In this document: piece after piece, positions 1 through 36,745 of the stretch
Position numbering within the stretch: position 1 is the stretch's first letter
How the letters are laid out: every line of letters begins with the position of its first letter
Made by a program: the position numbers and the translations under genes
Assembly (NCBI GenBank): GCA_010093705.1
Contig: MU006130.1
Coordinates: 1-38,048 of the forward strand
Origin: Patellaria atrata CBS 101060
Lineage: Eukaryota
Reading direction: 5' to 3'
Length of the DNA stretch: 38,048 nucleotides
The notes under the pieces: model-generated
Told to the model about the DNA's origin: nothing
Database searches by the model: none
Seen by the model: the letters and a program-made list of their open reading frames with translations, nothing else

Positions 1-654
1 TATTAATTTTATCTATAAATTTAAATATTATAATTTTAAATTTAACTTTATTTATTATATTATTTTTATATAATATATTTTATTTTATTATAAATATTAT
101 TTAAAATTAAGAAATTAAGAAATTATATTAATAATTTAAAATATTTTTATTATATATATTTTATTATTTTATTAAATTTATTTTATTAATTAATTATATT
201 AAATAAAAAATTAAGTATATTTTTAAATTTATTTCATTCTATTTTAATAAATATAAACTTTTATTATAATATTATAATTATTATATAATAGAAAAATATA
301 TAATAAATTTAAATATAATATTATTAATTATAATTAATATAAAGATTAAAAAAATATATTTAAATATTATATAAATATATTAATAAATTTAAAAATAAAA
401 AAATAATTTAAAAATTTAAAAATTTAAAAATTTATTTAAATAATTTATTATATAATTATTATTATTATAAAAAAGAATTATAAAAGTTAAAGAATTTATA
501 TTATATAATAATAAATAAAATAAATTAAAAGAATTTTTAATTTAAATAAAAATTTATTATAAAAGAATAAAATTAATAAATAATAATAAATATATATTTA
601 ATATATTAATATATTTTAAAAAAGATATTTTAAAATAATTTAAATTTATTATAA
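1..654 (+). mobile_element. Family B gypsy fragment F: 3' part of a 5' LTR (1-271) plus start of gag (272-654)
   Basis: Aligns by eye to the LTR end and gag start of element A (about 13975-14620), including the RIP-mutated 'KGDALKWFEP' segment. It ends where LTR L2 begins. Confidence 0.8.
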
Positions 655-1283
655 TATTATAGCTATAAATTATAGAAATATATAGATAATAAATAAGAGA
701 AAAGAAGAAAGACTATTTAAAAAAATTATAAATAAAATAAATAATAACGAGTTATATAACTTTAATATTTAAATATATAGATATTTTAATTATAAATAAA
801 ATAATTAAACGATTAAATAATTAAAAAAACTAAAAAGTACTATATAATTTAAATATTTAAATATATAGATATTTTAGTTATAAGAGAAATAATTAAATAA
901 TTAAATAATTAAAATAACTAAAATATAAATATATTAAATTAATTATAAAGAATAGAAATATTTAAAAATAGTTTTTCTTTTATATATTTAAATTCTTTAT
1001 AATTATTCTTATTATTAATTTTATTTATAAATTTAGATATTATAATTTTAAATTTAACTTTACTTATTATATTATTTCTATATAATATATCTTATTTTAT
1101 TATAAGTATTATCTAAAATTAAGGAGTTAATAAATTATATTAATAATTTAAAATATTTTTATTATATATATTCTATTATTTTACTAAATCTATCTTTATA
1201 ATTAATTATATTAAATAAGAAATTAAATATATTTTTAAATTTATTTAACTTTATTTTAATAAATATAAACTCTTATTATAATA
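655..1283 (+). mobile_element. Family B solo LTR (L2)
   Basis: Starts TATTATAGC (RIP form of TGTTACGGC) and ends ATTATAATA. It is 629 bp and colinear with the LTR at 20524-21151. TATAA lies on both sides, but the left and right flanks belong to different fragments. Confidence 0.85.
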
Positions 1284-2843
1284 TATAAATTTAAAATATA
1301 TTTTATTTTATAATTTTTATTATTTAAAAAATTATATTTTATATTAATTATTTATATAATTCTTTAATTTATTTAATTTTTAATATTATTTTTTAAAGAA
1401 TATTTTTAATTTATAATATACTTTTAATTTAAAATTATAATTTATATAAAAGAATAAAAATTTTATATTATTATATATAAATTATATTATTAATAATTAT
1501 ATTATTAATAATTTATATAATTATTTTATTAATAATTTATATAATTATATAAATATTATTTTAAAAATTAATTTATTTTTTTAATTTAATTATTTATTTA
1601 TTTATAAATAAAAGTTTATTAATAATTTATAATTTATCTTTAAATTTTATATTAAAGTTTATTAAAATATAAATTTAAATAGTTTATTTTTATTTAAAAT
1701 AATTTCTATTAATATTTAATAATTAATTAATCTTAATTTTTATATTAATATTATTATTTATAATACTATTATTATTATTTTTATTAATATAAAATAAATA
1801 ATCTTTATTAATTATTTTATAATAATTAATATTATATTTTATTTTATTTTTATTATTAAATTTTATATTTATTTTTAATAATTTAATATATTATATTTAT
1901 TTTTAAAATATAAATTTTATACTTTTATTTTATATATAATTATTATATTTTAAAATAATTATTTTTATTATATATTTTATTTTTAAAAAATTATAATTTC
2001 TTAAAATTTTTTTTAAATTTTATTAATATTTTAATAATTATATATTAATATTTTAAAAAATTTTTTAATAAAAGTTTTTTATAATATTATTAATATATAT
2101 TAAAATTTATTATATAATTATATTTTTTAAATTATTTTTATTATTTTAAAATTATTATTTTTTTAAAACTTTTTTATTAATATTATAATTAATTTTAATT
2201 TATTATAAATAATTATATTTTTTTCTTTTTTTAATATTATATTATATATTAATTTTTTTTTTTAAATAATTAAATTTTCTATTTATAATATTAATTAATT
2301 TATTTTTAACTTTTAATTTATAGAATATTTTAAAATTAAAGAATATAAATATTTCTATTTATTTTATTTATCTTTAATTTAAAGTCTTTATTATAAAAAA
2401 GTTTATTAAATTTTATTAATTTAATTAAATTTTTATAATTTTTTTTATAATTTTTTTATATATTTTTTATATTTTTTAAATATTTTATTTATATATATTA
2501 ATATATTATTTAAATAAATAATTATTAATATATTTAAATATTTTTTTAATATATAATTATTTATTACTTAAAATATTATTAAAATATTATTTAAATTAAA
2601 TAATATTATTATATATTTATATAATTTAAATTTTATTTTTATAATTATTTTTTATAATTATTTTTTTTTATCTTAAATTAATAATATTTATTTTAAATAA
2701 TAAATTTTATAAATTATTTTACTTTTTATAATTTATCTTAAATTTTTAAAATTAAAAGTAATAAATCTTTATTTTTAATTATAATATTATTTAATTATTT
2801 ATAATTTATATATAATTTTAATTTAATATTTTTTTTTAATATA

Positions 2844-2995
2844 AATAAAATTAATAAAATTAATAAAATTAATAAAATTAATAAAATTAATAAAATTAAT
2901 AAAATTAATAAAATTAATAAAATTAATAAAATAATAAAATTAATAAAATTAATAAAATTAATAAAATTAATAAAATTAATAAAATTAATAAAATT
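2844..2995. repeat. 9-bp tandem repeat (AATAAAATT), about 17 copies, inside the RT region of element E
   Basis: Directly visible array with one 8-bp unit. Its flanks match the RT region of element C near 10830-10870. Confidence 0.95.
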
Positions 2996-3916
2996 TTATT
3001 AAATTATATATATTTATTTTTTAAATTAATATAAATATATTTTTTAAATATTTTATATTATTTCTTTAATAATAAATAAATAAAATTAAATTATAATTTT
3101 ATATTTAATAATTTAAAAATATAATTTCTATATTTTTTTTTTAAATAAATCTTTAAATTTATTATATTTTTTAAATATTATAAATTCTTTAAAAAAAATT
3201 TTAATATTTATTTTTTTAAATTATATTATTTTTATATTTTTAAATTTATTTTTATAAATTTTTATTATTTTATAATATAAAATATATTTTTTTTTATTTA
3301 ATTTTATTTTATTTTATTTTATTTTAATTAATTTAAATTTTTTATTTATAATTAATTTATTTTTAAAATTATATTTATATTATTTTAATAGAAGTCTATA
3401 CTTATTAAAATAAAGTTAAATAAATTTTAAAATATATTTAATTTCTTATTTAATATAATTAACTATTAAGATCGATTTAATAAAATAATAAAATATATAT
3501 AATAAAGATATTTTAAGTTAATAATATAATTTATTAACTTCTTAACTTCGGGTAATACTTATAATAATATAAGATATATTATATAAAAATAATATAATAA
3601 GTAAAGTTAAGTTTAAAACTATAATATTTAAATTTATAAATAAAATTAATAGTAAAAATAATTATAAAAAATTTAAATATATAAAAAAAAAATTATCTTT
3701 AATTATTTTTATTCTTTATAATTAATTTAATTATTTATATTTTAATTATTCTAGTTATTTAATCGTTTATTTATTTCTTTTATAACTAAAATATTTATAT
3801 ATTTAAATATTTAAATTATATAATACTTTTTAATTATTTTAATTATTTAATCGTTTAATTATTTCTTTTATAATTAAAATATCTATATATTTAAATATTT
3901 AAATTATATAATTTAT

Positions 3917-4210
3917 TTTTATTTATTTTATTTATTTTATTTATTTTATTTATTTTATTTATTTTATTTATTTTATTTATTTTATTTATTTTATTTATTT
4001 TATTTATTTTATTTATNNNNNNNNNNNNNNNNNNNNNNNNNNNNNNNNNNNNNNNNNNNNNNNNNNNNNNNNNNNNNNNNNNNNNNNNNNNNNNNNNNNN
4101 NNNNNNNNNNNNNNNNTTTATTTTATTTATTTTATTTATTTTATTTATTTTATTTATTTTATTTATTTTATTTATTTTATTTATTTTATTTATTTTATTT
4201 ATTTTATTTA
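3917..4210. repeat. 9-bp tandem repeat (TTTTATTTA)n spanning the assembly gap
   Basis: The same unit is present on both sides of the N run. True length is unknown. Confidence 0.95.
4017..4116. other. Assembly gap (100 N)
   Basis: Run of exactly 100 N, a typical placeholder for a gap of unknown size. Confidence 1.
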
Positions 4211-6555
4211 TAATTTTTTTAAATAATCTTTTTTTCTTCTCTTTATTTATTATTTATATATTTTTATAATTTATAATTATAATATATATCTTTTAAATTA
4301 ATTAAGAAAATATATTAAATAATTTTTTTTATATATTAACTTTTATTAATATAGTTTTAAAATTAATTAAATTTTATATTTATTTTATATTTTTATTATT
4401 TTTTAATTATAATAATATTATATTTTTAAATTTTATATAAAATATATTTTTTCTCTTTATTTATTAAAATAAAATAAATAAATTAATAATATTATTATTT
4501 TTTATTATATATAATAATATTTATTTAAAATATTTTATTATTATTTTATAAAAATTTAAAAAATTTAAAAGTTTTATTTTTTAATTATTTTTATTTTAAA
4601 TAATTTAATAATTTTTTATATAATTATATATTAAATAATTAAATTTTATATATTAAATAATTTAATTTTATATATTTAATTTAATATAATTTAATATATT
4701 AATTATAATATAAATTTTTATTTAATAATTATATTATAATTTAAATTATTTTTAATTTTTACTTTTTATTTTTATATTATATAATAATTATATTATATAA
4801 TAATTATATTTTATTTAAAGTTTTATATATTATATTTAATAATATATTTAAATATTTTTTTTTATAAAACTTTTTCTTTAAATTATTATAATATTAATAA
4901 TTTATATTATATTTATAATTTTTCTATATTATTATTATATAATTTATCTAAATTAATTATTATAATTATAAATTATAAGAATATATAAATAATAAGTAAA
5001 AGAAAAAAAGAAATATTATTTAAAAAAACTATAAATAAAATAAATAATAAAGAATTATATAATTAAAATAATAATTATCGATCGCGTTAATTATAAAGAA
5101 TAATTAATAATTAAAATAATTAAATAATAATTATTAGTTATATTAATTATCTTCTATTAAAATTTAAAGAAAAAAGTGAAAAATAAATAGATTTATTATA
5201 AAAGATTAATAATTATATAAAATATAATAACTTTAGTAATTAGAATAGATAATAAATTATATAAATATAAATAAAAAAAGGAAAAATAAAAGAATATTAT
5301 AATTAAATATAAGAAAAAGATAATAAAAATTATAAATAAATAAAATTAAAAAGATTTAATAAATCTCGATTAACTATAATAGATAAAATAAAAGAAGTTA
5401 AAAAAATAATAATAATTTATTTAAAAAGAAAAAGAATATTTTATAAATAAAATATATTTATAATATAAAGAAATAAAATATTTTAAAAGAGATTATTTAT
5501 AAAAGATATAATTATTAACGCGATATAATTAATATATATAATTTAAAGTTATATATTTAATATTATTATTATTAGTTTTATTATTAGAAGAAGAAGAGAT
5601 TAAAAATATATTATTATTATATTAAATAAAGATAAATAGACTATTAATACTATTTTTAACGATAGAAAATTAGTTAAAAAAGAAGATACTTTAATAATAT
5701 TTAAATAATTAATAATATTAGATATATAAGAATATATATATATATATAATATTAGAATATCTAGTATAGAATTAAAATTAAAAAATTAAAGTATAAATAT
5801 TTAATAGACTTAATTTTATATATTAAATTATAAAATAATAATAATAGCTTAAATAAGAATTTTAAGATTAGAAATTAATTAAATTTAAATTCGATATTAA
5901 CGTAATTATTAAAGAATAATAGTTAAATCTTATATTAAAAATAGAAGATTATTTAACCTTTTAATAAATATAATATAAAGAAAATAACTATTTATACTAT
6001 AAATAGTAAAAGGTTATAATAAAGTTTAAAAACTAAAATCTTATATATATATATTTACTTAAAGGCGAGTATTAAGTAAAAGAATATAAAATTTATAAAG
6101 ATAAAATAAGAATATTTAAAAAGAATTAAAAATTTAAACTACTAATAAATAATTATAGAAAGTATAATAGTTTTAACTATATAAATAAGCTTAATATTAT
6201 AATAAGAGTCTATACTTATTAAGATAAAACTAGATAAGTCTAGAAATATATCTAGCTTCTCACTTAATATAGTTAACTATAAAGGTAAGTTTAGTAAAGT
6301 GATAGAATATATATAATAAAGGTATTTTAAGTTATTAATATAACTTACTAACTTCTTAACTTCGGGTAATACTTATAATAAGATAAGACGTACTATATAG
6401 TAATAATATAATAAGTGAAGTTAAGTTTAAAACCGTAATATTCAAATTTATAGGTAAGATTAATAGTAAAAATAATTACGAAGAATCTAAATATATAAGG
6501 GAAAGATTATTCTTAAATATTCCTATCCTTTATAGTTAATTTAATTGCCTATACT

Positions 6556-6835
6556 CTAGTTATTTTAGTTATTAGTCGTTCTCTATAACTAATATATCTA
6601 GCGACTACTATCTAATTATTTTAGTCGTTAATTATTTTCTATAACTAATATATCTAGCGACTATTATCTAATCGTTTTAGTCGTTAGTCGTTCTCTACGA
6701 CTAATATATCTAGCGACTACTATCTAGTCGTTTTAGTTATTAGTTATTTTCTACGACTAATATATCTAGCGATTATTATCTAGTCATTTTAGTTATTAGT
6801 CGTTTTCTACGACTAGTACGTCTAGCGACCACTAT
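6556..6835. repeat. Five tandem copies of a 56-bp unit in the U3 part of the element C LTR
   Basis: The unit CTAGTCGTTTTAGTCGTTAGTCGTTCTCTACGACTAATATATCTAGCGACTACTAT repeats head-to-tail, and copies differ by transitions. Confidence 0.95.
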
Positions 6836-7056
6836 CTAGTCACGTGATTCTCTATTACTCGTTTCACCCGTAGTTTCTCTAAGTGATATTCTTTCCTTTC
6901 CCTTACTTATTACCTATATATTCTTATAATTTATAATTATAACACTATTCTCCCCCTTTTTAACTCTTATTTTAAGAGTTTATTTCTTTTACTTAGATAT
7001 ATAATAAACATGTCGCCTATCTATTAAGTTATACGTATCTCTCTTTCCTTTCCGAG

Positions 7057-7605
7057 ATACTAAAAGCTAAACCCCGTCTAGTCTATCGCTAATATTACGC
7101 TACCTATATTACTTTACACGATTATCCTATATTAACTCTTTATTCCGTTTATCGTCGTTCTTCTTATTCTTATATTATCGATATCCCTTCTAGTTTCTAT
7201 TTTAAGTATCTCGCTCGTGATTTAAAATACGATCTTATAGTAATATAAAAGTATTAAGATAAGTTTAACGTTTTAAAAACTTATACTTATTCTAAGCTAG
7301 CTATTATCGAGAACGAGTAAGAATCTCTTTAGACTTATATATATTATCTTTATAAATAACTTCGTTCTCTTAAAGAGAAAGAGTTTAAGATATCTCGCCG
7401 TAAGCTTAGTTCTATCGAGAAACTTAAGGCTTTAAAGCGAGTAGTTAAAGAATAATAAATTTCCTCGATTATTTCTTCTTTCTCTATTATTATATCTTCT
7501 TCTAGTTAGTCTAGTTTAGATTTCTCTACTCTTAAGGGTCTAGAATTCTCTAATTTTAGCGATAAAACTATTTAAGTTTCTAATTATAGTTTATTAAGTG
7601 CTTAA
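7057..7605 (+). pseudogene. Antisense extra ORF of element C: putative Zn(II)2Cys6 protein with a charged, coiled-coil-like tail (RIP-inactivated)
   Basis: TAT/TAC codons at 7141, 7150, 7171, 7198, 7207 and 7228 give x2-x6-x8-x2-x6 spacing. RIP converts TGT/TGC to TAT/TAC. The start (ATA, presumed former ATG) and the end are inferred. Confidence 0.75.
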
Positions 7606-8987
7606 ATAGTTTTTATATATTATTTACGTATCTATAGTCTTTCTATTTTATTAAATATTTATACTAATTATTTATTTATTATAGATTTAAGATTTATTCT
7701 ACTTTATAGATATCTTTTTCCTTAAATTTTATAGATTATATTTAGAGTTTAGTATTAATATATACTAGTTCTAGAAGTGATATATAGAAAATTAAATGTA
7801 TCTTTATTTTTTATAGTAATTTTAACTTATAATTAACTTTTCCTTTAATTTATTTAATTTTAAAAGGGCCGATTTTCTTATAGTCTAGTTTCTTATTAGG
7901 TCGTTTTATTTTAAGGTTTTTCTATAATAAGTAAACTTTATCCTCTCTTTTAAAGATTAATTCTAGCGATTTATACTAATTATTATATTTTATAGCCCTT
8001 ATTATCTAAAAAGTTATATCTCGTGATAATTATATATATAATTCCTTAATTTACTTAACTTTTAATATTACTTCTTATAAAATGCTTTAAACTATTCTCG
8101 GCTCACGATATACTTCTAATTTAAAACTATAGTTCGTATAGAAAGATAAAACCTTTATAATATCGGACTTCGCGTTATTATATATAAATTATACTATTAG
8201 TAGTAGTTCTACCTAGTTATTCTACTAGTAATTTATATAGTTATATAAGTATTACTTTAGAGATTAGTTTATTCTTTTAGTTTAACTATTTATTTATAGA
8301 TAGAAGCTTATTAATAGCTTATAATTTACCTTTAAACTTTATACTAGATTCTACTAAAACGTTAATTTAAATAATTTATCTTTATCTAAGATAATTTCTT
8401 TCGATATTTAGTGATTTATTAGCACTATTTTTATCACTAATACTATTATTTATAGTGCGGTTATTATTATCTTTATTAATATAAAATAGGTGAACTTTAT
8501 TAGTCGTTTTATAATAACTAATATCGCGTTATACTTTATTTCTATCGTTAGATCTTTAAATCCTAGTAGACTTATAATAAAATCTATTATTATTAAATCT
8601 TATACTCGTTTTAATAACTTAATATATTATATTTATCTATAAGATACGTGTTTTACACTTTTATTTTATATATAATTATTATACTCTAAGATAACTTATT
8701 TTATTATACTTCTTACTTCTAGGAAATAGTAATTTCTTAAAATCCTTTTTAAGGTTTTATTAATATCTTAATAACTATATATTAATATTTCGTGAATCTC
8801 TTTAGTAAGAGTCTTTCGTAATATTATTAATATATATATAAGTCTATTATATAATTATATTCTTTAAGCTATTTATATTACTTTAAAGTTATTATTCTTT
8901 TAAAACTCCTTTATTATATTATCCTTCTAATAGATATCACGAATTTATTATTCTCTCGTGAATTCGATTATTAGTATTATAGCTAAT

Positions 8988-9615
8988 TATTATAATAGGA
9001 GTTTATACTTATTAAGACGAAGTTAGATAAGTCTAGAAACACGCTTAACTTCTCACTTAATATAGTTAACTATTAAGGTAGGTTTAGTAAAATAATAGAA
9101 TATATATAATAAAAGTATTTTAAGTTAATAATATAACTTACTAACTTCTTAATTTCGGGTAATACTTATAATAAGATAAGATATACTATATAGAAATAAT
9201 ATAATAAGTGAAGTTAAGTTTAAAACCGTAATATTTAAATTTATAGGTAAAATTAATAGTAAGAATAACTACGAAAAATCTAAATATATAAGGGAAAGAC
9301 TATTCTTAAATATTTTTATTCTTTATAATTAATTTAATTACTTATACTCTAGTCGTTCTAGTTATTTAGTCGTTTAATCGTTTCTCCTACGACTAAAACG
9401 TCTATATATCTAAACGTCTAAATTATATAGTATCTTTTAATCGTTCTAGTTATTCGGTCGTTTAGTCGTTTCTCTTACGATCGAAATATCTATATATCTA
9501 AACGTCTAAGTCACGTGATTCGTTATTACTTATTTTATTTATAGTTCTCCTAAGTAGTCTTTCTCTCTTCCCCTTATTTATTATCTATATATTCCTATAA
9601 CTTATAGCCGTAACA
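8988..9615 (-). mobile_element. Family B solo LTR (L6) inserted between RNaseH and integrase of element C, TSD CTAAT
   Basis: 628 bp, ending GCCGTAACA (TGTTACGGC on the minus strand). CTAAT lies at 8983-8987 and 9616-9620. The uninterrupted site is seen in element A near 18381-18415. Confidence 0.95.
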
Positions 9616-12600
9616 CTAATCTTAGCTAATTATAGGTGATTATATTATTTTCTTTCTTTAATACCGTATTATATACTAGTTTTATTTCTTTTAAGTAGTT
9701 AGATCTTCTACTTATAATATCGACTAATTTATTTTCGACTTTTAATCTATAAAATATTTTAAAGTTAAAGAATATAAGTGTTTCCGTTTATCTTATTTAT
9801 CTTCGATTTAACTTCTTTATCGTAAGGAAATTTATTAGGTTTTAATAATCTAATTAAACTTTTATAGTATATTTAGGTTCTTTAAAGTATAACCTTTATT
9901 ATTCGAATACGTCGATAATCGCTAATAACTCTTTATCGTATATATTATAATTTAGCTCCGCGGCCGTAAACTTCTATAAATAAAAGGCTATTAAATATAA
10001 TCGTCCTTTCTTATTTAGCTAACTTATATATATATCTAGTATATAATTAGATACGTTAATTTCTAATACTATTAGTTTCTCTAAGTTAAATATAATTAAG
10101 ATAGATATTATAATAAACTTTTTCTTAAATTTATTAAATATTTTCTATATCTTTCTTTATTTAAATAAAAGTATTTTCCTTCTTTATTAATTCTAATAGC
10201 GGTATTATTATCTTCGAGTATCTCTAGATAAACTTTCTATAATAGTTCACGAAATTTAAAAACAATTATACGTCCTTTACGTTTTTTAGTATCGGCTAAT
10301 CTTTAATTATAGCTACCTTTTTTAGATCTACTTATATACCTTTAATAATAATAATAAAGTCTAGAAATTTCGTTTCTTTAATATATTATTTATATTTATC
10401 TAAATATACTAAGAGTCTCTTTTCTCGTAGTTTTATTAATATTTTCTTTATATACTCTCTATACTTTTTAAGCGTTCCATTTATATATACTAGTATATTA
10501 TCTAGGTAAATAGTTATAAATACGTCTAAATATTCTTTTAGTATATAATTAATTACTACTTAAAATATTACTAGAGTATTAATTAAGCTAAATAGTATTA
10601 TTATATATTTATATAGTCCGAATCTTATTTTTATAGCTATCTTCTATTTTTCGCTTTCTTTTATTCTAATTCGATAGTAACTATCTCGAATATCGAATTT
10701 CGTAAACTATTTTACTTCTTATAACCTATCTTAAATTTCTAAGATTAAGGGTAATAGGTATCTATTCTTAACTATAATATCGTTTAACTATTTATAATTA
10801 ATATAAAGTCTTAACTTACTATTTTTCTTTAATATAAATAGAATTAGTAAAGCTATTAAGCTTTTACTAGATTATATATATCCCTTTTCTAAGTTAATAT
10901 AAATATATTCTTTAAATACTTTATATTATTCTCTTATTAACGGGTAAATTAGATTAGGTTATAATTTTATACTCTTTTTTAACATTATTTTATAATCCTA
11001 TATCTAGTAATCTAAAAGTATAGTTATTATATCTTCCTTAAATAAATCTTTAAACTTATTATACTCTTTAAATATCTTAAGTTCTTCGAAAATCTTCTTA
11101 TCGTTTATTTTTTTAAGCTATATTACTTTTATACTTTTAGATTTATTTTTATAGATCTTTATTATCTTATAATACGAAATATATTCTATAAATATATTAG
11201 TATCTATTTATTTAGTATATTTTATTCGCTTAACTTTATTCTTTTATAAAATATCTTAATTAATTTAAATACTTCTCGTCTTCTAGTTAATATCTAGATT
11301 TATTATTTATAATTAATCTATTTCTAGAATTATATCTATATCTTCTAAATTAGTTATAAGGATATATTAAGTAATTACCTTCCCTTATATATTAACTTTT
11401 ATTAATATAGTCTTAAAGTTAATTAGATTTTATCTATATTCTATTTCTTCGCTATTTCCTAGTCGTAACGGGACTAGATTTTTAAATTTTATATAAGATA
11501 TACTTTTCTTTTCTATTTATTAGGATAAAATAAATGAATCGATAACGTTATTATTAATTAACGCTATTATTCTCTTATTATATATAATAATATTTATTTA
11601 AAGCGTTCTATCGTTACTTTATAAGGTTTTAAGGAATTTAGAAGTTATACTTCTCGATTATTCTTATCTCGAGTAGCTTAGTAGTTTTTTATATAGCTAT
11701 ATACCGGGTAACCGGATTCTATATATATAGTCTAGTGTAATTTATTATATCGGTTATAGTATAGACTTTTACGATATTCTTCGCACTTTAATTCTCGATA
11801 TTCTCGTTTAATAATTATATTATAACTTAGATTACTTTTAATTCCTACTTTCTATCTTTATATAGTATAGTAATTATATTATATTTCTTTAATCGCGTAC
11901 TATCTAAAGTCTATCGCGTCGTATTTAGTGGTTTACTTAGTAGTCTTTCTATTATTTTTAAGTATTTCTATTTTCTATAAAAATATTTTTATTTTATAAA
12001 ACTCTTCCTCTAATTCTTTATAGTACTAGTAATTCGTACTATATTTATAATTTTTCCACGTTACTATTATATATCTCGTATAGATTAGTGTCTAGTAATA
12101 TTATCTATATCTAAGTTTATTTATATAGTTAAAACTATTATATTTTCTATAATTATTTACTAGTAACTTAAGTTTTTAATTCTTTTTAAGTACTTTTATT
12201 TCGTCTTTATAGATTTTATACTCTTTTATCTAGTATTAGTTTTTAAATAAATATATATATATAGAGTCTTAATCTTTAAACTTTATTATAACCTTTTATT
12301 ATTTATAATATAAGTAATTATTCTTTTTATATTATATTTATTAAAAGGTTAAGTAATCTTTTACCTTTAATATAAAGTTTAATTATTACTCTTTAATATT
12401 TATATTAGTATTAGATTTAAATTTAATCGGCTTCTAGTCTTAAAATTCTTATTTAATCTAACGTTATTATTTTATAATCTAGTATATAAAGTTTAATTTA
12501 TTAGATATTTATACTTTAATTCTTTAACTTTAATTTTATATTAAGTATTCTAATATTATATATATATATACGTTTTTATACGCTTAATATTATTAGTAGT

Positions 12601-14276
12601 TTAAATATTATTAGAGTATCTTCTCTTTTAACTAATTTCCTATTATCGAGAATAATATCGATAGTCTATTTATTTCTATTTAATATAGTAGCGATATTTT
12701 TTTAATCTCTTTTTCTTCTTTAAGTAATAAGACTAGCGATAGTAATATTAAATATATAACTCTAAATTATATATATCGATTATATTATAATTAAGATTAT
12801 ATTTTTTATAGATAATCTTTCTTAAAATATTTTATTTCTCTATATTATAGATATACTTTATTTATAAAGCGTTCTTTTTCTTCTTAAATAAATTATTATT
12901 ATTTTTTTAACTTCTTTTATTTTATTTATTATAATTAGTTAAGATTTATTAAATCTCTCTAATCTTATTTATTTATAATCTTTATTATCTTCTTTTTATA
13001 TCTAATTATAATATTCTTTTATTCTCTCTTTTTTTATCTATATTTATATAACTTATTATCTATTTTAACTACTAAAATTATTATATCTTATATTATTATT
13101 AATCTTTTATAATAAATCTATTTATTCTTCACTTCTTTCTTTAAACTTTAATAGAAAGTTATTATTAGTGATTTATCGAGTTAATTTAATATTAATATTA
13201 TCTATTAAAATATAATTATATATTTTAAAGTTAATTCTTTTTATTTAAATTCTTAAAACTTTCTTTTTATTATTTATTATTTATCGACTTTTCTAAAGAT
13301 ATTCTTAAGCGTTTCTTTAAACTTTAGAAATAATTTAAAAATCTTAACTATTTCGTCTTTTTAATATTCTTCACTATTCTTAAAATAGTCTTATATAATA
13401 GATTTAAACTATTTTAAAGCGTCTTCTTTAAAGTATATTAATATATCGAGTATATATTTATTATTATCTATTAACTTTATTCTTTTATAATAAATTCTTA
13501 TTTAGATTAAAAATTCTTTTAATTTATTTTATTTACTATTATATAAGATAGATTCTTTAACTTTCACGGTTTACTTTTATAGTAAAAGTAATTATATAAT
13601 AAATTATTTAAGTTAATCCTTAAATTTTTAAATTATCTCTTTATTTTTAAGTTTATTAATATATTTATATAATATTTAGATATATTCTTTATTTATTTTT
13701 ATATTAATTATAATTAATAATATTATATCTAAGTTTATTATACGTTTTCTTACTATATAATAGTTATAATATTATAATAAAAGTTTATACTTATTAAAAT
13801 AAAGCTAAATAAATTTAAAAACACGTTATAGACGTTTCGATTATAGAAAAAATAATTAAATAACTAAATAATTAGAATAACTAGAGTATAGATAATTAAA
13901 TTAACTATAAAGAATAAGAATATTTAAGAATAATTCTTTTTTTATATATTTAGATTCTTTATAGTTATTTTTACTATTAATCTTATCTATAGATTTAAAT
14001 ATTATAGTTTTAAACTTAACTTCACTTATTATATTATTTCTATATAGTATATCTTATCTTATTATAAGTATTACCCGAAGTTAAGAAGTTAATAAATTAT
14101 ATTATTAACTTAAAATATCTTTATTATATATATTTTATCACTTTACTAAACCTATCTTTATAGTTAATCACGTTAAGTGAAAAGCTAGGCGTATTTCTAG
14201 ACTTATCTAGTTCCGTCTTAATAAATATAGACTCCCGTTATAATATTATAACTACTATATAGTAGAAAAGCGTATA

Positions 14277-16328
14277 ATAGATCTAGACACGATATTATTA
14301 GTTATAGTTAATATAAAGATAAATAAAGAATATATTTAAGCGTTATATAAATATATTAATAAACTTAAAAATAAAGAGATAGTTTAAGAATTTAAGGACT
14401 AGCTTAAATAACTTATTATATAATTATTATTATTATAAAAACGTACCGCGAAAGTTAAAAAACCCGTACCGTATAATAGTAAACGAAACGAGTTAAAAGA
14501 ATTCTTAATTTAGATAAAAATCTATTATAAAAGAATAAGGTTAATAGATAATAATAAATATATACTCGATATATTAATATATCTTAAAGGAGACGCTTTA
14601 AAATAGTTCGAATCTATTATATAAAACTATCTTAAGAATAGTGAAGAATATTAAAAAGATAAAATAGTGAAGATCTTTAAGTTATTTTTAAAGTTTAAAG
14701 AAATATTTAAAAATATCTTTAAAGAAGTCGATAAATAATAAATAGTTAAAAAAAAGCTCTAAGAACTTAAATAAAAAGAGTTAGCTTTAAAGTATATAAC
14801 TATATTTTAATAGATAGTATTAATATTAGGTTAATCTAATAAATTACTAATAATCGCTTTTTACTAAGGCTTAAAGGAAGAAATAAAGAACGAGTAAATT
14901 TATTATAAAAGACTAATAACTATATAAAATATAGTGATTTTAGTAGTTAGAATAAATAATAGATTATATAAATATAGATAGAAAAAGAGAGGATAGAAGA
15001 ATATTATAATTAAGTATAGAAAGAAGATAATAAAAATTATAAATAGATAAAATTAAAGAGATTTAATAAACTTTAATTAACTATAATAGATAAAATAAAA
15101 GAAGTTAAAAAAATAATAATAATTCACTTAAAAAGAAAAGAAATATTTTATAAATAAAGTATATTTATAATATAGAGAAGTGAGATATTTTAAGAAAGAC
15201 TATTTATAGAAGATATAATTATCCTCGCGATATAATTAACGTATATAACTTAGAGTTATATATTTAATACTATTATTATTAGTCTTATCGCTAGAAGAGG
15301 AAGAGATTAAAGAAACGCCGTTACTCTATTAAATAGAGATAAGTAGGTTATTAACGCCGTTTCTAATAATAGAAAACTAGTTAAAGGAGAAAATACTCCG
15401 ATAATATTTAGACTATTAATAATATTAGATATATAGAAATATACACGCGTATATAGTATTAGAATATCTAGTATAGAACTAAGATTAAAGAATCGAAATA
15501 TAAATATCTAATAGATTAAGCCTTATATACCGGATTATAGAATAATAATATTAGCTTAAATAGAAATTCTAAGATTAGGAGTCGATTAAACCTAAATTTA
15601 ATATCGATATAATTATCGAAGAATAATAATTAAATTTTATATTAAAAGTAAAAGACTATCTAACCTTTTAATAAATATAATATAAAGAGAATAACTATTT
15701 ATACTATAAATAGTAGAAGGTTATAATAAAGTTTAAAAATTAAGATCCTATTTATATATATTTATCTAAAAGCTAGTATTAGGTAAAAGGGTATAAAATC
15801 TATAAAAACGAAATAAAAGTACTCGAAAAGAACTAAGGACTTAAATTATTAATAGATAATTATAGAAAATATAATAGTTTTAATTATATAGATAAATTTA
15901 GATATAGATAATATTACTAGACACTAGTCTATATAGAATATATAGTAATAACGTGAGTAGATTATAAATATAGTATAAATTACTAGTACTATAAAGGATT
16001 AAAGAAAGAGTTCTATAAAATAAAAATATTTTTATAGAAAATAGAAGTGTTTAGAAATAGTAAAAAGACTATTAAGTAAGCTATTAAATACGACGCGATA
16101 GATTTTAGATAATACGCGATTAGAGGAATATAATACGATTATTACACTATATAGAGATTAAAAATAGGAATTAAAAGTAATCTAAGTTATAATATAATTA
16201 TTAAATAAGAATATCGAGAATCGAAGTATAAAGAATATTATAAAAGTCTATACTATAACTAATATAATAAATTACACTAGACCGTATACGTAAAATCCGG
16301 TTATCTAGTATATAGTTATATAAAAAAC
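14277..16328 (+). pseudogene. gag: gag of element A with a long C-terminal extension
   Basis: One frame carries 'AKVKKPVPY', 'YLKGDALK*FE' and a zinc knuckle with Y-x2-Y-x4-Y-x4-Y spacing (former CCHC) at 15162-15203. The same frame continues to A AAA AAC at 16322-16328. Confidence 0.8.
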
Positions 16329-19300
16329 TACTAAGCCACTCGAGATAAAAATAATCGAGAAATATAGCTTTTAAGTTTCTTAAAACTCTATAAAACGATA
16401 ATAGAATATTTTAAATAGATATTACTATATATAGTAAGAGAATAATAACGCTAATTAATAATAACGCTATCGATTTATTTATCTCACCTCGATAAGTAGA
16501 AAAGAAAAATATATTTTATATAAAATTTAAGAATTTAGTCCCGCTACGACTAGAAAATAGCGAAGGAATAGAATATAAACGAGGTCTAATTAACTTTAGA
16601 ATTATACTAATAAAAGTTAATATATAAGAAAAGATAACTACTTAATATATCTTTATAATCGATTTAGGAGATATAGATATAATTTTAAGGATAAATTAGT
16701 TATAAATAATAAATCTAGATATTAATTAGAAGATAAAAAATATCTAAATTAACTAAAATATCTTATAAAAGAATAGAGTTAAATGAATAAGATATATTAA
16801 ATAGATAGACGCTAATATATCTATAAGATATATTTCGTATTATAAAATAATAAAAATCTATAGAAATAAATCTAAAAGTGTAAAAGTAGTATAGTTTAGA
16901 AAAGTAAATATAAAGAGAGTTTTCGAAGAATTTAAGATATTCGAAAAGTATAATAAGTTTAAAGATTTATTTAAGAAAGATATAATAACTATATTTCCGA
17001 ATTATTAGACGTGGGATTACGAAATAATACTAAAAGAGGGTATAAAACTATAATCCGATCTAATTTACCCGTTAATAAGGGAATAGTATAAAGCACTTAA
17101 AGAATATATTTATACTAATTTAGAAAAAGGATATATACGATCTAGCGAAAACTCGATAGTTTCACCGATTCTATTTATATTAAAGAAGAATAATAAGTTA
17201 AGATTATATATTAATTATAGATAGTTAAATAATATTATAATTAAGAATAGATATCTATTATCCTTAATCTTAGAAATTTAAAATAAATTATAAAGAGTAA
17301 AATAGTTTATAAAATTTAATATTTAAGATAGTTACTATCGAATTAGAATAAAAGAAGACGAAGAATAGAAGATAGCTATAAAAATAAGATTTAAATTATA
17401 TAAATATATAATAATATTATTTAGTTTAATTAACACTTTAATAACGTTTTAAGTAATAATTAATTATATATTAAGAGAATATTTAGATATATTTATAACT
17501 ATTTACCTAGATAATATATTAATATATATAAATAAAACGCTTAAAAAGTATAAGAAGTATATAAAGAAAATATTAATAAAATTATAAGAAAAGAGACTTT
17601 TAGTATATTTAGATAAATATAAATAATATATTAAAGAAATAGAATTTCTAGACTTTATTATTATTATTAAAGATATATAAATAGACCTAAAAAAGATAGC
17701 TATAATCTAAGATTAATTAATATTAAAGAATATAAAGAATATATAATCGTTCTTAAGTTTTATAAACTATTATAGAAAGTTTATTTAGGGATACTCGAAA
17801 ATAATAACACCGCTATTAAAATTAATAAAGAAAGAAAATACCTTTATTTAAATAGAAAAGATATAGAAAATATTCGATAAACTTAAAAAGAAGTTTATTA
17901 TAATATTTATCTTAATTATATTTAATCTAAAGAAATCGATAGTATTAGAGATTAATATATTTAATTATATACTAGATATATATATAAATTAGCTAGACGA
18001 GAAAGAACGACTATATTTAATAGCTTTTCACTTATAGAAGTTTATAGCTATAAAGCTAAACTATAATATACACGATAAAGAATTATTAGCGATTATCGAC
18101 GTATTTAAATAATAGAGGTTATACCTTAAAAAACTTAAGTATATTATAAAAGTTTAGTTAAATTATTAAAACCTAATAAACTTTCTCACGATAAAGAAGT
18201 TAAATCGAAGATAAATAAAATAAATAGAAATACTTATATCCTTTAACTTTAAGATATTTTATAGACTAGAAGTTAAAAATAAACTAGCTAATATTATAAG
18301 TAGAAGATTCGATTATTTAGAAGAAATAAAATCGATATATAATATAATATTAAAGAAAGAAAGTAACGCGATCACCTATAACTAGTTAAGATTAACTATA
18401 ATACTAATAATCGAATCTTCGAGAGAATAATAAATTTATAATACTTATTAAAAAGATAGTATAATAGAGGAGTTCTAAAAAAATAATAATTTTAGAGTAA
18501 TATAAATAACTTAAGAAATATAATTATATAACGGGCTTATATATATATTAATAATACTACGAAAGACTTTTACTAAAGAGATTCACGAAGCACTAGTATA
18601 TAGCTATTAAGATATTAATAAAACCTTAAAAAGAATTCTAAGAAATTACTATTTTCTAGAAATAAGAAGTATAGTAAAGTAAATTATTTTAGAATATAAT
18701 AACTATATATAAAATAAGAGTATAAAATATATATCTTATAAATAAATATAATATATTAAGTCACTAAAACGAGTATAAGACTTAATAATAATAGACTTTA
18801 TTATAGGTCTACTAGAATTTAAAGATCTAGCGATAAAAGTAAAATATAACGCGATATTAATTATTATAGAATAATTAATAAAGTTTATTTACTTTATACT
18901 AGTAAAGATAATAATAATAGTACTATAAGTAGTAGTATTAGTAATAAAAATAATATTAATAAATTACTAGATATTAAAAGAGATTATTTTAAATAAAGAT
19001 AAACTATTTAAATTAACGTTTTAATAGACTCTAATATAGAGTTTAAGAGTAAATTATAAGTTATTAATAAGCTTCTATCTATAAATAGATAGCTAAACTA
19101 AGAGAATAAATTAATCTCTAAAGTAATACTTACGTAATTATATAAATTACTAATAGAATAATTAGATAAAGCTACTATTAATAGTATAATTCGTATATAA
19201 TAACGCGAAATCCGATATTATAAAGGTTTTACTCTTTTATATAAATTATAGTTTTAAATTAGAAGTATATTATAAGTCGAGAATAGTTTAGAGTATTTTA

Positions 19301-19870
19301 TAAAAAGTAATATTAAAAGTTAAGTAAATTAAAGAATTATATATATAGTTATTATAAGATATAGCTTTCTAGATAATAAGAGCTATAAAGTATAATAATT
19401 AATATAAGTCGCTAGAATTAATCTTTAAAAGAAAGGATAAAGTTTACTTATTATAGAAAAATTTTAAAATAAAATAACTTAATAAGAAACTAGATTATAA
19501 GAAAATTAGCTCTTTTAAAATTAAATAGATTAAAGGAAAAGTTAATTATAAGTTAAAATTATTATAAGGAATAAAGATACACCTAATTTTCTATATATTA
19601 CTTCTAAAACTAGTATATACTAACGCTAAACTCTAAATATAACCTATAGAACTTAAGAAAGAAGATATTTATAAGATAAAATAAATTTTAGATCTATAAT
19701 AAGTAAATAATTAGTATAAATATTTAGTAAAATAGAAAGACTATAAATATATAAATAATATATAGAAATTATTTAAACACTTAATAAATTATAATTAGAA
19801 ACTTAAATAGTTTTATCGTTAAAACTAGAAAATTCTAAACTCTTAAAGGCGGAGAAATCTAAACTAGACT
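16328..19870 (+). pseudogene. pol: pol of element A (protease, RT, RNase H, integrase, chromodomain); end approximate
   Basis: Frame is -1 relative to gag. Motifs: protease relic 'TLINNNA' at 16448, 'IYLDN' (YLDD) at 17501-17515, 'YNIHDKELLAI' near 18062, chromodomain relic near 19667. Confidence 0.85.
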
Positions 19871-20408
19871 AACTAAAAGAAGATATAATAGTGAAAGAAG
19901 AAAAAACGATTAAGAAAGTTTATTATCCTTTAACTACTTACTTTAAAGTCTTAAGTTTCTCGATAAAATTAAGTTTATAATAAGATATTCTCGCCTTCTT
20001 ATATTTAAGTAAAAGAAACTTATAATAAAATCGATAAAAATAAGTATAAGTAGTATAAATCGCTTTATATTAAGTATAAATTATCTCTTATTAAAGATAT
20101 ATCGCCTCTAAAATCGCCTTCTTATAGAGATAAGTGGTTTTCTCCTCGATCTTTTTAATAGTATTAAGCTTAGAATAAAACTTTACTTTTAAAACGTTAA
20201 GCTTATCTTAATTCTTTTATATTACCACGAGATTATATTTTAAACTACGAGCGAGACACTTAAAATAGAAACTAGAAGGAATATCGATAATATAAAAATA
20301 AGAAAAATAATAATAAGCGGAATAAAAAGTCGATATAAGATAATTATATAAAGTAATATAGATAATATAGCGTTAATAATAAACTAAATAGAGTTTAGCT
20401 TTTAATAT
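19773..20408 (-). pseudogene. Antisense extra ORF of element A (long variant), putative Zn(II)2Cys6 protein
   Basis: Motif at 20235-20324 with the same spacing as in C. The fifth Cys codon survives as TGT (20256-20258). The ORF is 87 nt longer than the C and D copies. Confidence 0.75.
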
Positions 20409-22332
20409 CTTAAAAGAAAGAAAAAAGAGATATATATAACTTAATAGATAGATAATACGTCTATTATATACTTAAATAAAAGAAATAAACTTTTAAGATA
20501 AAAGTTAAAAAGAGGGAGGATAATATTATAACTATAAATTATAGAAATATATAGATAATAAATAAGGGAAAGAGAGAAAAACCATTTAAAAGAATTATAA
20601 ATAAAATAAATAATAATAAATTATATAATTTAGATATTTAGATATATAGATATTTTAGTTATAAAAGAAACGATTAAACGATTAAACGACTAAAATAACT
20701 AAAAGATACTATATAACTTAGATATTTAGATATATAGATATTTTAGTCGTAAAAGAAATAATTAAACGATTAAATAACTAAAATAATTAAAGTATAGATA
20801 ATTAAATTAACTATAAAGAATAGAGATATTTAAAAATAATTCTTTTTTTATATATTTAGATTTTTTATAGTAATTTTTACTATTAATTTTACCTATAAAT
20901 TTAGATATTATAGTTTTAAACTTAATTTTACTTATTATATTATTTCTATATAATACGTTTTATCTTATTATAAGTATTATCTAAAGTTAAGAAGTTAATA
21001 AGTTATATTATTAATTTAAAATATCTTTATTATATATATTTTATTATTTTACTAAATCTATCTTTATAGTTAATTATATTAAGTGAGAAGTTAAGCGTGT
21101 TTCTAGATTTATCTAGTTCCGTCTTAATAAGTATAGACTTCTATTATAATAACTAATATATAATTATTAAAGTATTAATAAAATCTTAAAAAGAATTTTA
21201 AGAAATTACTATTTTTTAGAAATAAGAAATATTATAAAGTAAATTATCTTAAAATATAATAATTATATATAAAATAAAAGTATAAAGTATATATTTTATA
21301 GATAAATATAATATATTAAGTTATTAAAGCGAGTATAAAATTTAATAATAATAAATTTTATTATAAATTTATTAGAATCTAAAAATTTAATAATAAAAGT
21401 AAAATATAATATAATATTAATTATTATAGAATAACTAATAAAGTTTATTTATTTTATATTAATAAAGATAATAATAATAGTATTATAAATAGTAATATTA
21501 ATATTAAATTAAATATTAATAAACTATTAAATATTAAGAAAGATTATTTTAAATAAAGATAAACTATTTAAATTAATATTTTAATAAATTTTAATATAAA
21601 GTTTAAAAGTAAATTATAAGTTATTTATTAGCTTTTATCTATAAATAGATAATTAAATTAAAAGAATAAATTAATCTTTAAAGTAATATTTATATAATTA
21701 TATAAATTATTAATAAAATAATTAGATAAAACTATTATTAATAATATAATTTATATATAATAACGCGAAATTTAATATTATAAAAGTTTTACTCTTTTAT
21801 ATAAACTATAATTTTAAATTAAAAATATATTATAAGTCGAGAATAGTTTAAAGTATTTTATAAAAAGTAATATTAAAAGTCGAGTAAATTAAGAAATTAT
21901 ATAATTAACTATTATAAAATATAACTTTCTAAATAATAAAGACTATAAAATATAATAATTAGTATAGATTATTAAAATTAATCTTTAAAAAAGAGAATAA
22001 AGTTTACTTATTATAGAAAAATCTTAAAATAAAATAATTAAATAAGAAATTAAATTATAAAAAAATTAACTTTTTTAAAATTAAATAAATTAAAAGAAAA
22101 GTTAATTATAAGTTAAAACTATAATAAGAAATAAAGATATATCTAATTTTCTATATATTACTTCTAGAATTAATATATATTAACGTTAAACTTTAAATAT
22201 AACTTATAAAACTTAAGAAGGAAAATATTTATAAAATAAAATAAATCTTAAATTTATAATAAATAAATAATTAATATAAATATTTAGTAAAATAAAAAGA
22301 CTATAAATATTTAAATAATATATAAAAATTAT

Positions 22333-22881
22333 TTAAATATTTAATAAATTATAATTAAAAACTTAAATAGTTTTATTATTAAAATTAAAGAATTCTAAAT
22401 TTTTAAAAATAAAGAAATTTAAACTAAACTAACTAGAAGAAAATATAATAATAAAGAAAGAAGAAATAATTAAGAAAATTTATTATTCTTTAATTATTTA
22501 CTTTAAAATTTTAAGTTTTTTAATAAAATTAAGTTTATAATAGAATATTTTAAATTCTTTATTTTTAAGAGAATAAAATTATTTATAAAGATAATATATA
22601 TAAATTTAAAGGAATTCTTATTTATTTTTAATAATAATTAATTTAAAGTAAATTTAAATCTTTAAAGTATTAAGTTTATTTTAATCTTTTTATATTATTA
22701 TAAGATTATATTTTATATTATAAGTAAAATATTTAGAATAAAAATTAGAAGAAATATCGATAATATAAAAATAAAAAAAATAACGATAAATAAAATAGAG
22801 AGTTAATATAGAATAACTATATAAAGTAATATAGATAATATAATATTAATAATAGATTAAATAGAGTTTAACTTTTAATAT
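22333..22881 (-). pseudogene. Antisense extra ORF of element D (short variant), putative Zn(II)2Cys6 protein
   Basis: Colinear with 7057-7605, motif at 22708-22797, more heavily mutated. Confidence 0.65.
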
Positions 22882-25258
22882 CTTAAAAAAAAAAAAGGTA
22901 TATATAATTTAATAAATAGATAATATATTTATTATATATTTAAGTAAAAGAAATAAACTCTTAAAATAAAAGTTAAAAAAAGAGAAAATAATATTATAAC
23001 TATAAATTATAAGAATATATAGATAATAAATAAAAAGAAAAAAGAAGTATTATTTAAAGAAATTATAAATAAAATAAATAATAAAGAATTATATAATTAA
23101 GATAATAATTATCGATTATATTTATTATAAAGAATAACTAATAATTAAAATAACTAGATAAATAATTATTAATTATATTAATTATAGAGAATAATTAATA
23201 ACTAAAATAATTAGAGTATAAATAATTAAATTAATTATAAAGAATAGAAATATTTAAAAATAATCTTTTTCTTATATATTTAAATTCTTTATAATTATTT
23301 TTATTATTAATCTTATCTATAAATTTAAATATTATAGTTTTAAACTTAACTTTATTTATTATATTATTTCTATATAATATATCTTATTTTATTATAAATA
23401 TTATCTAAAGTTAAGAAGTTAATAAATTATATCGATAATTTAAAATATCTTTATTATATAAATTCTATCATTTTATTAAATCTATCTTTATAGTTAATTA
23501 TATTAAATAAAAAGCTAAATATATTTATAAATTTATTTAATTTTATTTTAATAAATATAAACTTTTATTATAATACTAATATTTAATAATATTATTTAAA
23601 TTTAAATTTATTTATATAATTAAAATTATTATATTTTTTATAATTATTTATTAATAATTTAAATTTTTAATTTTTTTAAAATATTTTTATTTTATCTTTA
23701 TAAATTTTATATTCTTTTATTTAATATTTATTTTTAAATAAATATATATATATAAAGTTTTAATTTTTAAATTTTATTATAATTTTTTATTATTTATAAT
23801 ATAAATAATTATTTTTTTTATATTATATTTATTAAAAAATTAAATATTCTTTTATTTTTAATATAAAATTTAATTATTATTTATTAATAATTATATTAAT
23901 ATTAAATTTAAATTTAATTAATTTTTAATTTTAAAATTTTTATTTAAATTATTATTATTATTTTAAAATTTAATATATAAAATTTAATTTATTTATATTT
24001 ATACTTTAATTTTTTAATTTTAATTTTAATTTTATATTAAATATTAAAATATTATATATATATATATATTTTTATATATTTATATATTTAATATTATTAA
24101 TTATTTAAATATTATTAAAATATTTTTTTCTTTAATTAATTTTTTATTATTAAAAATAATATTAATAATTTATTTATTTTTATTTAATATAATAATAACC
24201 TTTTTTAAATTTTTTTTTCTTTAAATAATAAAATTAATAATTTTAATAATTTTAAATATATAATTTTAAATTATATATATTAATTATTTATAATAATAAT
24301 TTTATTTTTTATAAATAATTTTTATTTAATATTTTATTTCTTTATATTATAAATATATTTTATTTATAAAATATTTTCTTTTTTTTTTAAATAAATTATT
24401 AATATTTTTTAAATTTTTTTTATCTTATTTATTATAATTAATTAAAATTTATTAAGTTTTTTTAATTTTATTTATTTATAATTTTTATAATTTTCTTTTT
24501 ATATTTAATTATAATATTCTTTTATTCTCTTTTTTTTTATTTATATTTATATAATTTATTTTTTATTTTAATTATTTTAATTATTATATTTTATATAATT
24601 ATTAATTTTTTATAATAAATTTATTTATTTTTTATTTTTTTCTTTAAATTTTAATAAAAAATAATTATTAATAATTTATTAAATTAAATTAATATTAATA
24701 TTATTTATAAAAATATAATTATATATTTTAAAGTTAACTCTTTTTATTTAAATTTTTTAAATTTTCTTTTAATTATTTATTATTTATTAGTTTTTTTAAA
24801 AATATTCTTAAATTTTAAAAATAATTTAAAAATCTTTATTATTTTATTTTTTTAATATTTTTTATTATTTTTAAAATAATTTTTTATAATAAATTTAAAT
24901 TATTTTAAATTATTTTTTTTTAAAATATATTAATATATTTATTATTATTTATTAATTTTATTTTTTTATTATAAATTTTTTAAATTTATTTTATTTATTA
25001 TTATATAATATAAATTTTTTAACTTTTATAATTATTTTTTATAATAATAATAATTATATAATAAATTATTTAAATTAATTTTTAAATTTTTAAATTTTTT
25101 CTTTATTTTTAAATTTTTAAATTTTTTCTTTATTTTTAAATTTATTAATATATTTATATAATATTTAAATATATTTTTTATTTATCTTTATATTAATTAT
25201 AATTAATAATATTATATTTAAATTTATTATATATTTTTCTATTATATAATAATTATAA

Positions 25259-30788: not shown

Positions 30789-30790
30789 CT

Positions 30791-36742: not shown

Positions 36743-36745
36743 TAA

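Follow-up and report, generated by a model that had tools for sequence, protein, structure and literature searches.

Organization of the locus

The window (the whole 38,048-nt stretch of Patellaria atrata CBS 101060 contig MU006130.1 that was analysed) consists for the most part of fungal repeat DNA mutated by RIP, with a GC content of 2-24% up to about 30.5 kb. The dinucleotide indices of the region 6195-8987 (TpA/ApT 1.41, (CpA+TpG)/(ApC+GpT) 0.14) presumably lie on the RIP side of the usual thresholds; the corresponding values for a GC-rich element at 30523-37014 are 1.15 and 0.80. Self-comparison of the window, Pfam searches of read-through frames, and reverse transcriptase (RT) and chromodomain motifs that are readable by eye in the RIPped frames together indicate that the repeats are nested copies of a single family of Ty3/Gypsy chromoviruses. 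The Pfam searches identified RT_RNaseH in the read-through frames (E 1.5e-9), and Integrase_H2C2 and SH3_Tf2-1 with scores under their cut-offs in a RIPped frame; the RT-RNase H-integrase order and the C-terminal chromodomain are those of Ty3/Gypsy chromoviruses.

The elements and long terminal repeats (LTRs) that concern us are listed below. LTRs are called 56-type or 88-type after the length of the unit that is repeated in their U3 regions.

6195 to ~13903, minus strand: element C, a full-length RIP-killed chromovirus; in an earlier note on this DNA, C denoted LTR L1 together with the internal part to 8987
6195-6944, minus strand: L1, the 3' LTR of C, 56-type, 750 nt, U5 end at 6195 and U3 start at 6944
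6556-6835, minus strand: array of five head-to-tail 56-bp units in the U3 of L1
6945-6961, minus strand: polypurine tract, adjoining the U3 start of L1
8988-9615, minus strand: L2, a solo LTR, 88-type, array at 9349-9505; inside the integrase region of C
13844-21151, plus strand: element A, internal part 14262-20523, 3' LTR L5
20524-21151, plus strand: L5, LTR of A, 88-type, array at 20634-20792 (69 + 88 nt) with a GTCGT-N7-ACGAC palindrome
21152-23575: element D, a mirror copy of C, carrying LTR L6
22992-23575, plus strand: L6, LTR of D, 56-type, two units at 23102-23214 (57 + 56 nt)
4962-5160, plus strand: L10, LTR fragment, 56-type, ~1.6 units at 5043-5150
25241-25883, minus strand: L7, LTR of a host element, 88-type duplication at 25602-25777, N5 palindrome spacer
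651-1290: L8, 88-type
3142-4004: L9, 88-type

The solo LTR L2 is flanked by a 5-bp target duplication, ATTAG, and has the same orientation as the 56-type element C in which it resides. L6 reaches host gag sequence at 23602 after 26 nt of filler, and L10 is the 5' LTR of the insertion whose other LTR is L6, the two marking one host gag site.

A tandem array in the U3 region of a chromovirus LTR

Five 56-nt units fill positions 6556-6835 exactly and in register, at the same coordinates as had been marked in the earlier note; TRF reports the repeat at 6555-6842 with a period of 56, 5.1 copies, 85% matches and a score of 380. Both this output and the in-register alignment bear out the earlier description of a 56-bp unit with five copies in C; D has two units, where the note gave about two. 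The five units of C vary in 17 columns, every one of them C/T or G/A with no transversions, which implies five identical copies prior to RIP. In the orientation of the antisense gene described below, each unit contains three direct GTCG sub-repeats, an inverted CGAC that makes up GTCGT-N5-ACGAC, and then GCGAC. The hexamer AGTCGT occurs 24 times in the window against an expectation of 7.4 +/- 2.7 (none of 100 shuffles reached 24). Of these occurrences, 15 belong to three of the LTR arrays, with 9 in that of C, 4 in that of the solo LTR (8988-9615) and 2 in that of A. With nine AGTCGT in 280 nt, the array of C is a dense cluster of CG-centred half-sites with inverted pairs.

The U3 location is established by the alignment of nine LTR copies and by the polypurine tract alongside. 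Within the 750-nt LTR the array takes up nt 110-389. It is 294-573 nt upstream of the position equivalent to the antisense start codon, the ORF beginning 185 nt beyond the U3 edge. On the opposite side, a TATA-like box that would belong to the sense LTR promoter was picked out by eye in AT-rich RIPped DNA (6527-6535, minus strand), at a distance of 21 nt from the array; a less mutated copy from the same genome differs at this site. The position of the array is consistent with an upstream activating region serving both the antisense gene and the LTR promoter. U3 regions are, however, hypervariable and repeat-rich with or without an encoded factor, so that position and repetition are weak evidence for a regulatory reading, and at present the array looks like any ordinary U3 tandem repeat. 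Tandem repeats are missing from the LTRs of the chromovirus at 30523-37014, the only one in the window with no antisense gene (n = 1).

Two array types from one ancestral core

At least eight LTRs in the window can be typed, three of the 56-type (L1, L6 and L10) and five of the 88-type (L2, L5, L7, L8 and L9, all with the 69 + 88 nt arrangement). The earlier note had counted only three elements as the basis of its proposal; that number is correct for LTRs with an adjoining ORF region, and has to be replaced by at least eight for typable LTRs and by two for independent lineages. For element A, the same note had described two copies of a different unit of about 80 bp. A two-copy array is roughly what is found, with a unit of 88 bp in ~1.8 copies (69 + 88 nt), but the unit is not a different one. 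The de-RIPped 56- and 88-bp units align over a 34-37-nt core with a score of 36, compared to a mean of 12.9 and a maximum of 28 among 2000 shuffles, none of which reached 36. This core contains the shared sub-repeats and the inverted CGAC, and the rest of the 88-bp unit is a copy of the flank that adjoins the array. The "types" of 56 and 88 bp arose as alternative duplications, in tandem, from a single ancestral U3 core.

The spacer within the inverted pair is 5 nt in all 8 of the 56-type units and 7 nt in 8 of the 10 88-type units. In L7, both units combine the 88-type duplication with the 5-nt spacer, a third architecture; the window thus holds at least three array architectures, and array features reassort. 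An attempt to assign LTRs to subfamilies outside the array was dropped, the 2-9 transversions per 470 columns that separate L1, L6, L2, L5, L7 and L8 being too few; this range leaves out L9 and L10, whose rows are inflated by an N run or misalignment, and L4, which is truncated to 391 columns (9-15 transversions).

Unit number varies between close copies. There are five units in L1 and two in its sister L6, and because these LTRs belong to copies of one insertion (see below), copy number drifts without transposition, whether by growth from two to five units or by loss from five to two. In contigs from the same genome (two public runs of one sample), eight array joints have known inserts, and the arrays are shorter by 56 nt in two, by 111-112 nt in three and by 168 nt in one; the difference is 103 nt at one of the remaining two and 215 nt at the other. 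Of the 16 contig pieces listed, not one covers the array and the ORF indel together. Both the drift and the shorter forms would be natural for a neutral minisatellite, a functionless product of slippage or unequal exchange that is tolerated in the U3. This seems to us an improbable account of the array, given that one core was duplicated in at least three separate architectures, that the five units were identical before RIP and that the U3 of a distant intact relative contains a motif cluster in the corresponding position.

The antisense gene and its protein family

The elements carry an additional ORF in the interval from pol to the 3' LTR, running antisense to gag-pol. The arrangement is clearest in A, where the pol domains end near 19800 (plus strand), the ORF runs from 20336 to 19773 (minus strand) and the LTR starts at 20524. 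The copies in the window are the following.

7129-7605, plus strand: antisense ORF of C, short form, 158 codons; RIP-killed, with Cys-to-Tyr codons and several stops
7262-7475, plus strand: variable coiled-coil block of this ORF, with 25 of the 58 C-versus-A transversions
19773-20336, minus strand: antisense ORF of A, long form, 187 codons; closest intact relative P0003
22333-22809, minus strand: antisense ORF of D, short form, in the mirror copy of C

A profile made from the three read-through translations, with stops written as X, was searched against 1.84 billion proteins. Two of them matched at E up to 0.001, and P0001, a protein of 174 amino acids, matched best (E 8.8e-19). Residues 5-34 of P0001 have the form CX2CX6CX8CX2CX6C, which fits the Pfam Zn_clus pattern CX2CX6CX5-12CX2CX6-8C, and the protein passes the Zn_clus model (PF00172) marginally, with 22.0 bits against a cut-off of 21 (E 1.8e-4). 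The close family comprises seven paralogs of 127-175 amino acids, all named in their source as Patellaria atrata CBS 101060 proteins; the profile search added one more Patellaria-named protein and six from metagenomes, giving 14 members in all. Two of the metagenome relatives, P0012 and P0013, although called as proteins, have Tyr at the family Cys positions and look RIP-damaged themselves.

The AF2 model of P0001 (mean pLDDT 75.7, with 64-74 in the cluster and above 90 in the helix of residues 40-130) consists of two short helices at the Cys pairs, the 40-130 helix and a disordered tail with an acidic, hydrophobic motif. A Foldseek search of the Protein Data Bank (PDB) at E up to 10 returned 15 matches, and 13 of the 14 listed are named Zn2Cys6 DNA-binding domains, among them those of Put3, Leu3, Pho7, Gal4, Ppr1, Hap1 and AlcR; the best E value is only 0.62, and none of the 15 reaches 0.001. 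The Gal4 structure 1aw6 superimposes on the model with an rmsd of 1.6 A over 31 columns. A sequence search of the PDB with P0001 gave coiled-coil noise only (best E 0.1) and no Zn2Cys6 domain. About five residues link the last Cys to the helix, in the short and long forms alike. The cluster has Ser-Ser at the position of the Lys-Lys through which Gal4 contacts DNA.

In the window copies, nearly all of the Cys positions of the cluster are Tyr, with a single Cys retained in A, which is the TGY-to-TAY change expected from RIP. Pfam found no family in the RIPped minus-strand frames of 14262-20531, and the zinc cluster was not detected there. The layout of the ORF at 7129-7605 combines a Zn2Cys6 cluster with a coiled coil and an acidic tail. 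The profile match, the Zn_clus score and the Foldseek matches support the view that RIP has killed an antisense ORF related to a genuine Zn2Cys6-type protein, the kind of protein that had been suggested in the earlier note. A Tyr-rich run, YATYITLHDY (7093-7128), was considered as a source of additional cysteines and rejected: the intact relatives begin at MPTPC, which places the run outside the protein.

ORF forms and array types are linked by descent

The antisense ORF of A has 87 bases (29 codons, in frame) more than those of C and D, which agrees with the previous assignment of the long form to A and the short form to C and D. The gap in C and D coincides exactly with that in P0004, an intact paralog of 158 amino acids. 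P0004 is also the best match of the C ORF (score 315, next best 250), and P0003 is that of the A ORF (210.5 versus 183.5), so that both the short and the long form exist intact elsewhere. The indel is at 7323/7324, and the 29-residue block (approximately residues 64-92) falls midway along the predicted helix 40-130, outside the 5-residue linker.

The differences between A and C are unevenly distributed. Of the 58 transversions, the array block accounts for 23 and the coil block for 25; only 10 are in the other ~2300 nt, and the zinc cluster and linker have at most one per 100 nt. By these counts, the array and the coil block are the only diverged modules of otherwise near-identical elements.

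The central claim of the earlier note was that the LTR type tracks the ORF variant. L1 (C) and L6 (D) meet host gag sequence at one and the same breakpoint, as mirror images of each other, and this shared junction means that C and D both descend from one insertion. The tracking therefore rests on two lineages rather than three, one combining 56-type LTRs (L10, L6 and L1) with the short ORF and the other combining 88-type LTRs with the long ORF. A difference at two sites between any pair of lineages would "track" in this sense; with C and D being copies of one insertion, the observation has no statistical content, and the correlation that was offered carries no weight as evidence. We read the co-occurrence of array type and ORF form in the window as linkage by descent, not as matched specificities.

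A more specific proposition is that the subfamilies carry private, co-evolved pairs of activator and upstream activating sequence (UAS), in which the coil block sets the dimer partner or reach, the length of the coil variant sets a half-site spacing matched to its own array type, and the U3 architecture evolves along with it. Competing subfamilies within one nucleus would then activate only themselves, in the manner of incompatibility groups. Such pairing could account for the restriction of divergence to the array and coil block, and for the consistent spacers of the two types (5 nt in 8/8 and 7 nt in 8/10 units). We nevertheless consider it unlikely. Just two independent lineages are available; neither the zinc cluster nor the linker differs between the variants, and the indel is in the middle of the helix; L7 joins the 88-type duplication to the N5 spacer in both of its units; and the coil block exists in at least four versions among the seven intact paralogs, including those of P0001 and P0006. 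Because the zinc cluster and linker are near-invariant and the half-site core is common to the array types, nothing suggests different DNA specificities, and the earlier idea that linker or dimer variants set the spacing loses its footing.

CGG content and the form of the half-sites

Zn2Cys6 binding sites had been expected to emerge in the de-RIPped units as regularly spaced CGG. They did not. The array of C contains no CGG or CCG, either raw or after de-RIPping from its own five units, and none is present in the arrays of A and D; the L2 array has one, the TTCGGTCG at 9453-9460 that had been singled out as a surviving sub-repeat and is indeed there; and a single CGG and a single CCG, separated by 23 nt, occur in the de-RIPped 88-bp unit. 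Less mutated copies from the same genome read (C/T)GGTCGTT where C reads TAGTCGTT, so that TAGTCGTT descends from this form, as had been guessed for the sub-repeats, and some CGG was once present. Among the 12 inserts listed for other copies in the genome, 5 also contain CGG or CCG. This amount is no more than expected by chance in GC-balanced sequence, and paired CGG/CCG half-sites at a fixed spacing were found neither in the C array nor in the 88-bp unit.

The expectation of spaced CGG is itself too narrow for Zn2Cys6 sites, since AflR recognizes CG half-sites in the form TCG-N5-CGA (PMC12501005), and yeast zinc-cluster factors are described as activating via dense clusters of half-sites without strict spacing, with an output that grows as half-sites become more numerous (PMC10250231). 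The arrays share with the AflR site the inverted, CG-centred half-sites, here TCG-N7-CGA in the 56-type and TCG-N9-CGA in the 88-type. The AflR site differs in its N5 spacing, and AflR, as it is described in this source, has no dimer coil; the likeness is one of motif form only.

A distant intact relative

A scan of metagenomes produced 595 pattern matches and a single confirmed locus, L001; a scan of viral contigs produced 430 pattern matches and no confirmed locus. L001 is a distant and intact relative (46% identity over residues 1-114) with the same layout as the window copies, its ATG being ~175 nt from the U3 edge. The U3 contains 8 GATCGC in 127 nt (shuffle mean 0.23, maximum 4 in 2000), along with a palindrome of 24 nt and a perfect tandem of 3.9 copies of 10 bp. 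The L001 LTR has no excess of CGG/CCG (10 versus 14.1 +/- 3.4 expected). The repeated motifs, GGTCGY in the window and GATCGC in L001, are only loosely alike. A common motif, GCGACCAC versus GCGATCAC (7/8 in the same orientation), was rejected, a rough estimate placing the match at chance level once rotations of the 10-bp repeat are allowed for.

Two further features of L001 deserve mention. An apparent short intron at 2203-2249 directly follows the zinc cluster; neither the window copies nor the Patellaria-named paralogs have an intron there, and their frames stay open across this point. At 1-1898 of its contig, the antisense gene is followed by one LTR and then by the primer-binding region and gag, on the minus strand, an order that fits tandem elements, a one-LTR circle or the collapse of two LTRs by the assembler.

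A candidate regulatory circuit within a retrotransposon

In the model we propose, the array would be a repeat-amplified upstream regulatory module of the LTR. Its core of ~45 bp, with GTCG/CGAC half-sites (ancestrally (C/T)GGTCGT) and GTCGT-N5-ACGAC, has been duplicated to five copies between two divergent units, the sense promoter of the LTR and the antisense accessory gene. The product of this gene was a small protein of Gal4 type, in which a Zn2Cys6 cluster and a linker of 5 residues are joined to a helix of ~90 residues, likely to be a dimer coil, and an acidic, DLDFSALEGLEF-like tail. The protein may have bound the clustered half-sites of the U3 and thereby activated both promoters, which would result in a positive feedback loop like that of the GAL1-GAL10 UAS or of foamy-virus Tas on its LTR; tandem duplication would have raised the half-site density. 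That the element's own Zn2Cys6 protein bound the U3 array is the reading we favor, tentatively and with a probability of about 0.4. In its favor are the position of the array, the protein family, the clustering of AGTCGT, the matching layout and motif cluster of L001, the concentration of transversions in the array and coil blocks, the repeat-free LTRs of the chromovirus that has no antisense gene, and the half-site clusters described for other zinc-cluster factors. Against it weigh the lack of CGG/CCG in the units of C and of CGG enrichment in L001, the Ser-Ser in place of the Lys-Lys of Gal4, the loose likeness between the motifs of the window and of L001, the drift in unit number, and the marginal Zn_clus score.

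Alternatively, host factors alone may have bound an ordinary U3 tandem-repeat enhancer, with the zinc-cluster protein acting elsewhere, for example on host genes, in silencing or as a coiled-coil adaptor that does not bind DNA. This account is plausible, if short of an even chance. It draws on the general hypervariability and modularity of the U3 in LTR elements, as in Tnt1A, Tnt1B, Tnt1C, Retrolyc1 and Retrosol, subfamilies that differ mainly in the U3 and for which modular evolution is described (PMC1838419). It agrees, further, with the lack of CGG in the units of C and of CGG enrichment in the L001 LTR, and with published antisense ORFs between pol and the 3' LTR, to which no function is assigned in the available text of PMC7264820. 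What it leaves unexplained is the retention of a protein of DNA-binding type with an acidic tail beside a dense motif cluster in two distant relatives. The likeness to Tnt1 lies in elements that are near-identical outside the U3; there host factors are involved, whereas the elements studied here have a second variable module, inside a gene of DNA-binding type that they encode themselves.

The known antisense cases, termed aORF-3R, reportedly come from Zhao et al. 2011. Antisense ORFs between pol and the 3' LTR are described for Boty, with brtn, in Botrytis and Sclerotinia, for maize Grande, for rice RIRE2 and for Silene Retand (PMC7264820, PMC8365987). Like the gene studied here, brtn and the other aORF-3R are extra genes opposite gag-pol, in the pol-3' LTR interval of Ty3/Gypsy elements, and conserved across copies. 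They differ in that no domain or function is assigned to them in the available parts of these sources, while here intact relatives have a Zn2Cys6 cluster; the likeness is one of position, and no Botrytis protein is among the 14 family members from the profile search.

The GAL1-GAL10 UAS consists of clustered Gal4 sites between two divergent promoters. With Gal4 and other zinc-cluster factors, the present system shares the Zn2Cys6 cluster, short linker and coiled coil, as well as clustered half-sites between divergent promoters (PMC10250231). It departs from Gal4 in having GTCG/GGTCGY in place of clean CGG, a protein of only 127-187 amino acids and a location on a mobile element. The foamy-virus transactivator, Tas or BTas, binds its own LTR and an internal promoter (PMC4929722) and is, as in the proposed model, a retroelement-encoded activator of its own U3. 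Unlike the protein considered here, it is of an unrelated kind, belongs to a vertebrate retrovirus and is encoded by a sense gene; binding is demonstrated there and proposed here.

If the protein binds the arrays, these retrotransposons carried both halves of a transcriptional switch, an arrangement known in complex retroviruses and found in none of the papers on LTR retrotransposons that were consulted, and this would be the first function for antisense ORFs of this position. A full-text literature search yielded, among the papers it listed, none linking a Zn2Cys6 or zinc-cluster protein to a retrotransposon-borne gene. Intact natural proteins of the P0003 and P0004 types exist, as do natural arrays.

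Additional features of the window

Self-comparison identified 9617-14615 as the reverse complement of 13400-18394, with 82% identity. A palindrome of ~20 kb, spanning 4960-25883 with its centre near 14008, is built from nested copies of one retrotransposon family; its arms end at mirror-image junctions of LTR and host gag, and either a real inverted duplication or an assembly effect could have produced it. In the right arm, ~2.1 kb (18394-20531) have no counterpart at the matching place in the left arm, and, relative to the L2 site, the full element on the opposite arm ends ~200 nt further along (21151/21152).

The segments 1-5000 and 23600-30500 have a GC content of 2-5% and align weakly to the same chromovirus family, being almost all A/T from deep RIP. 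A run of 100 N at 4017-4116, an assembly gap or masked sequence, is located at the U3 end of L9 between the simple repeats (TTTATTTTA)n and (TATTTTATT)n, and (AATAAAATT)x17 occupies 2844-2995. The separate chromovirus at 30523-37014 is barely RIPped (GC ~48%), with LTRs at 30523-30794 and 36752-37014 and a gag-pol that is broken by a few stops or frame changes; a fragment of a related pol C-terminus is present on the minus strand at 37831-38046.
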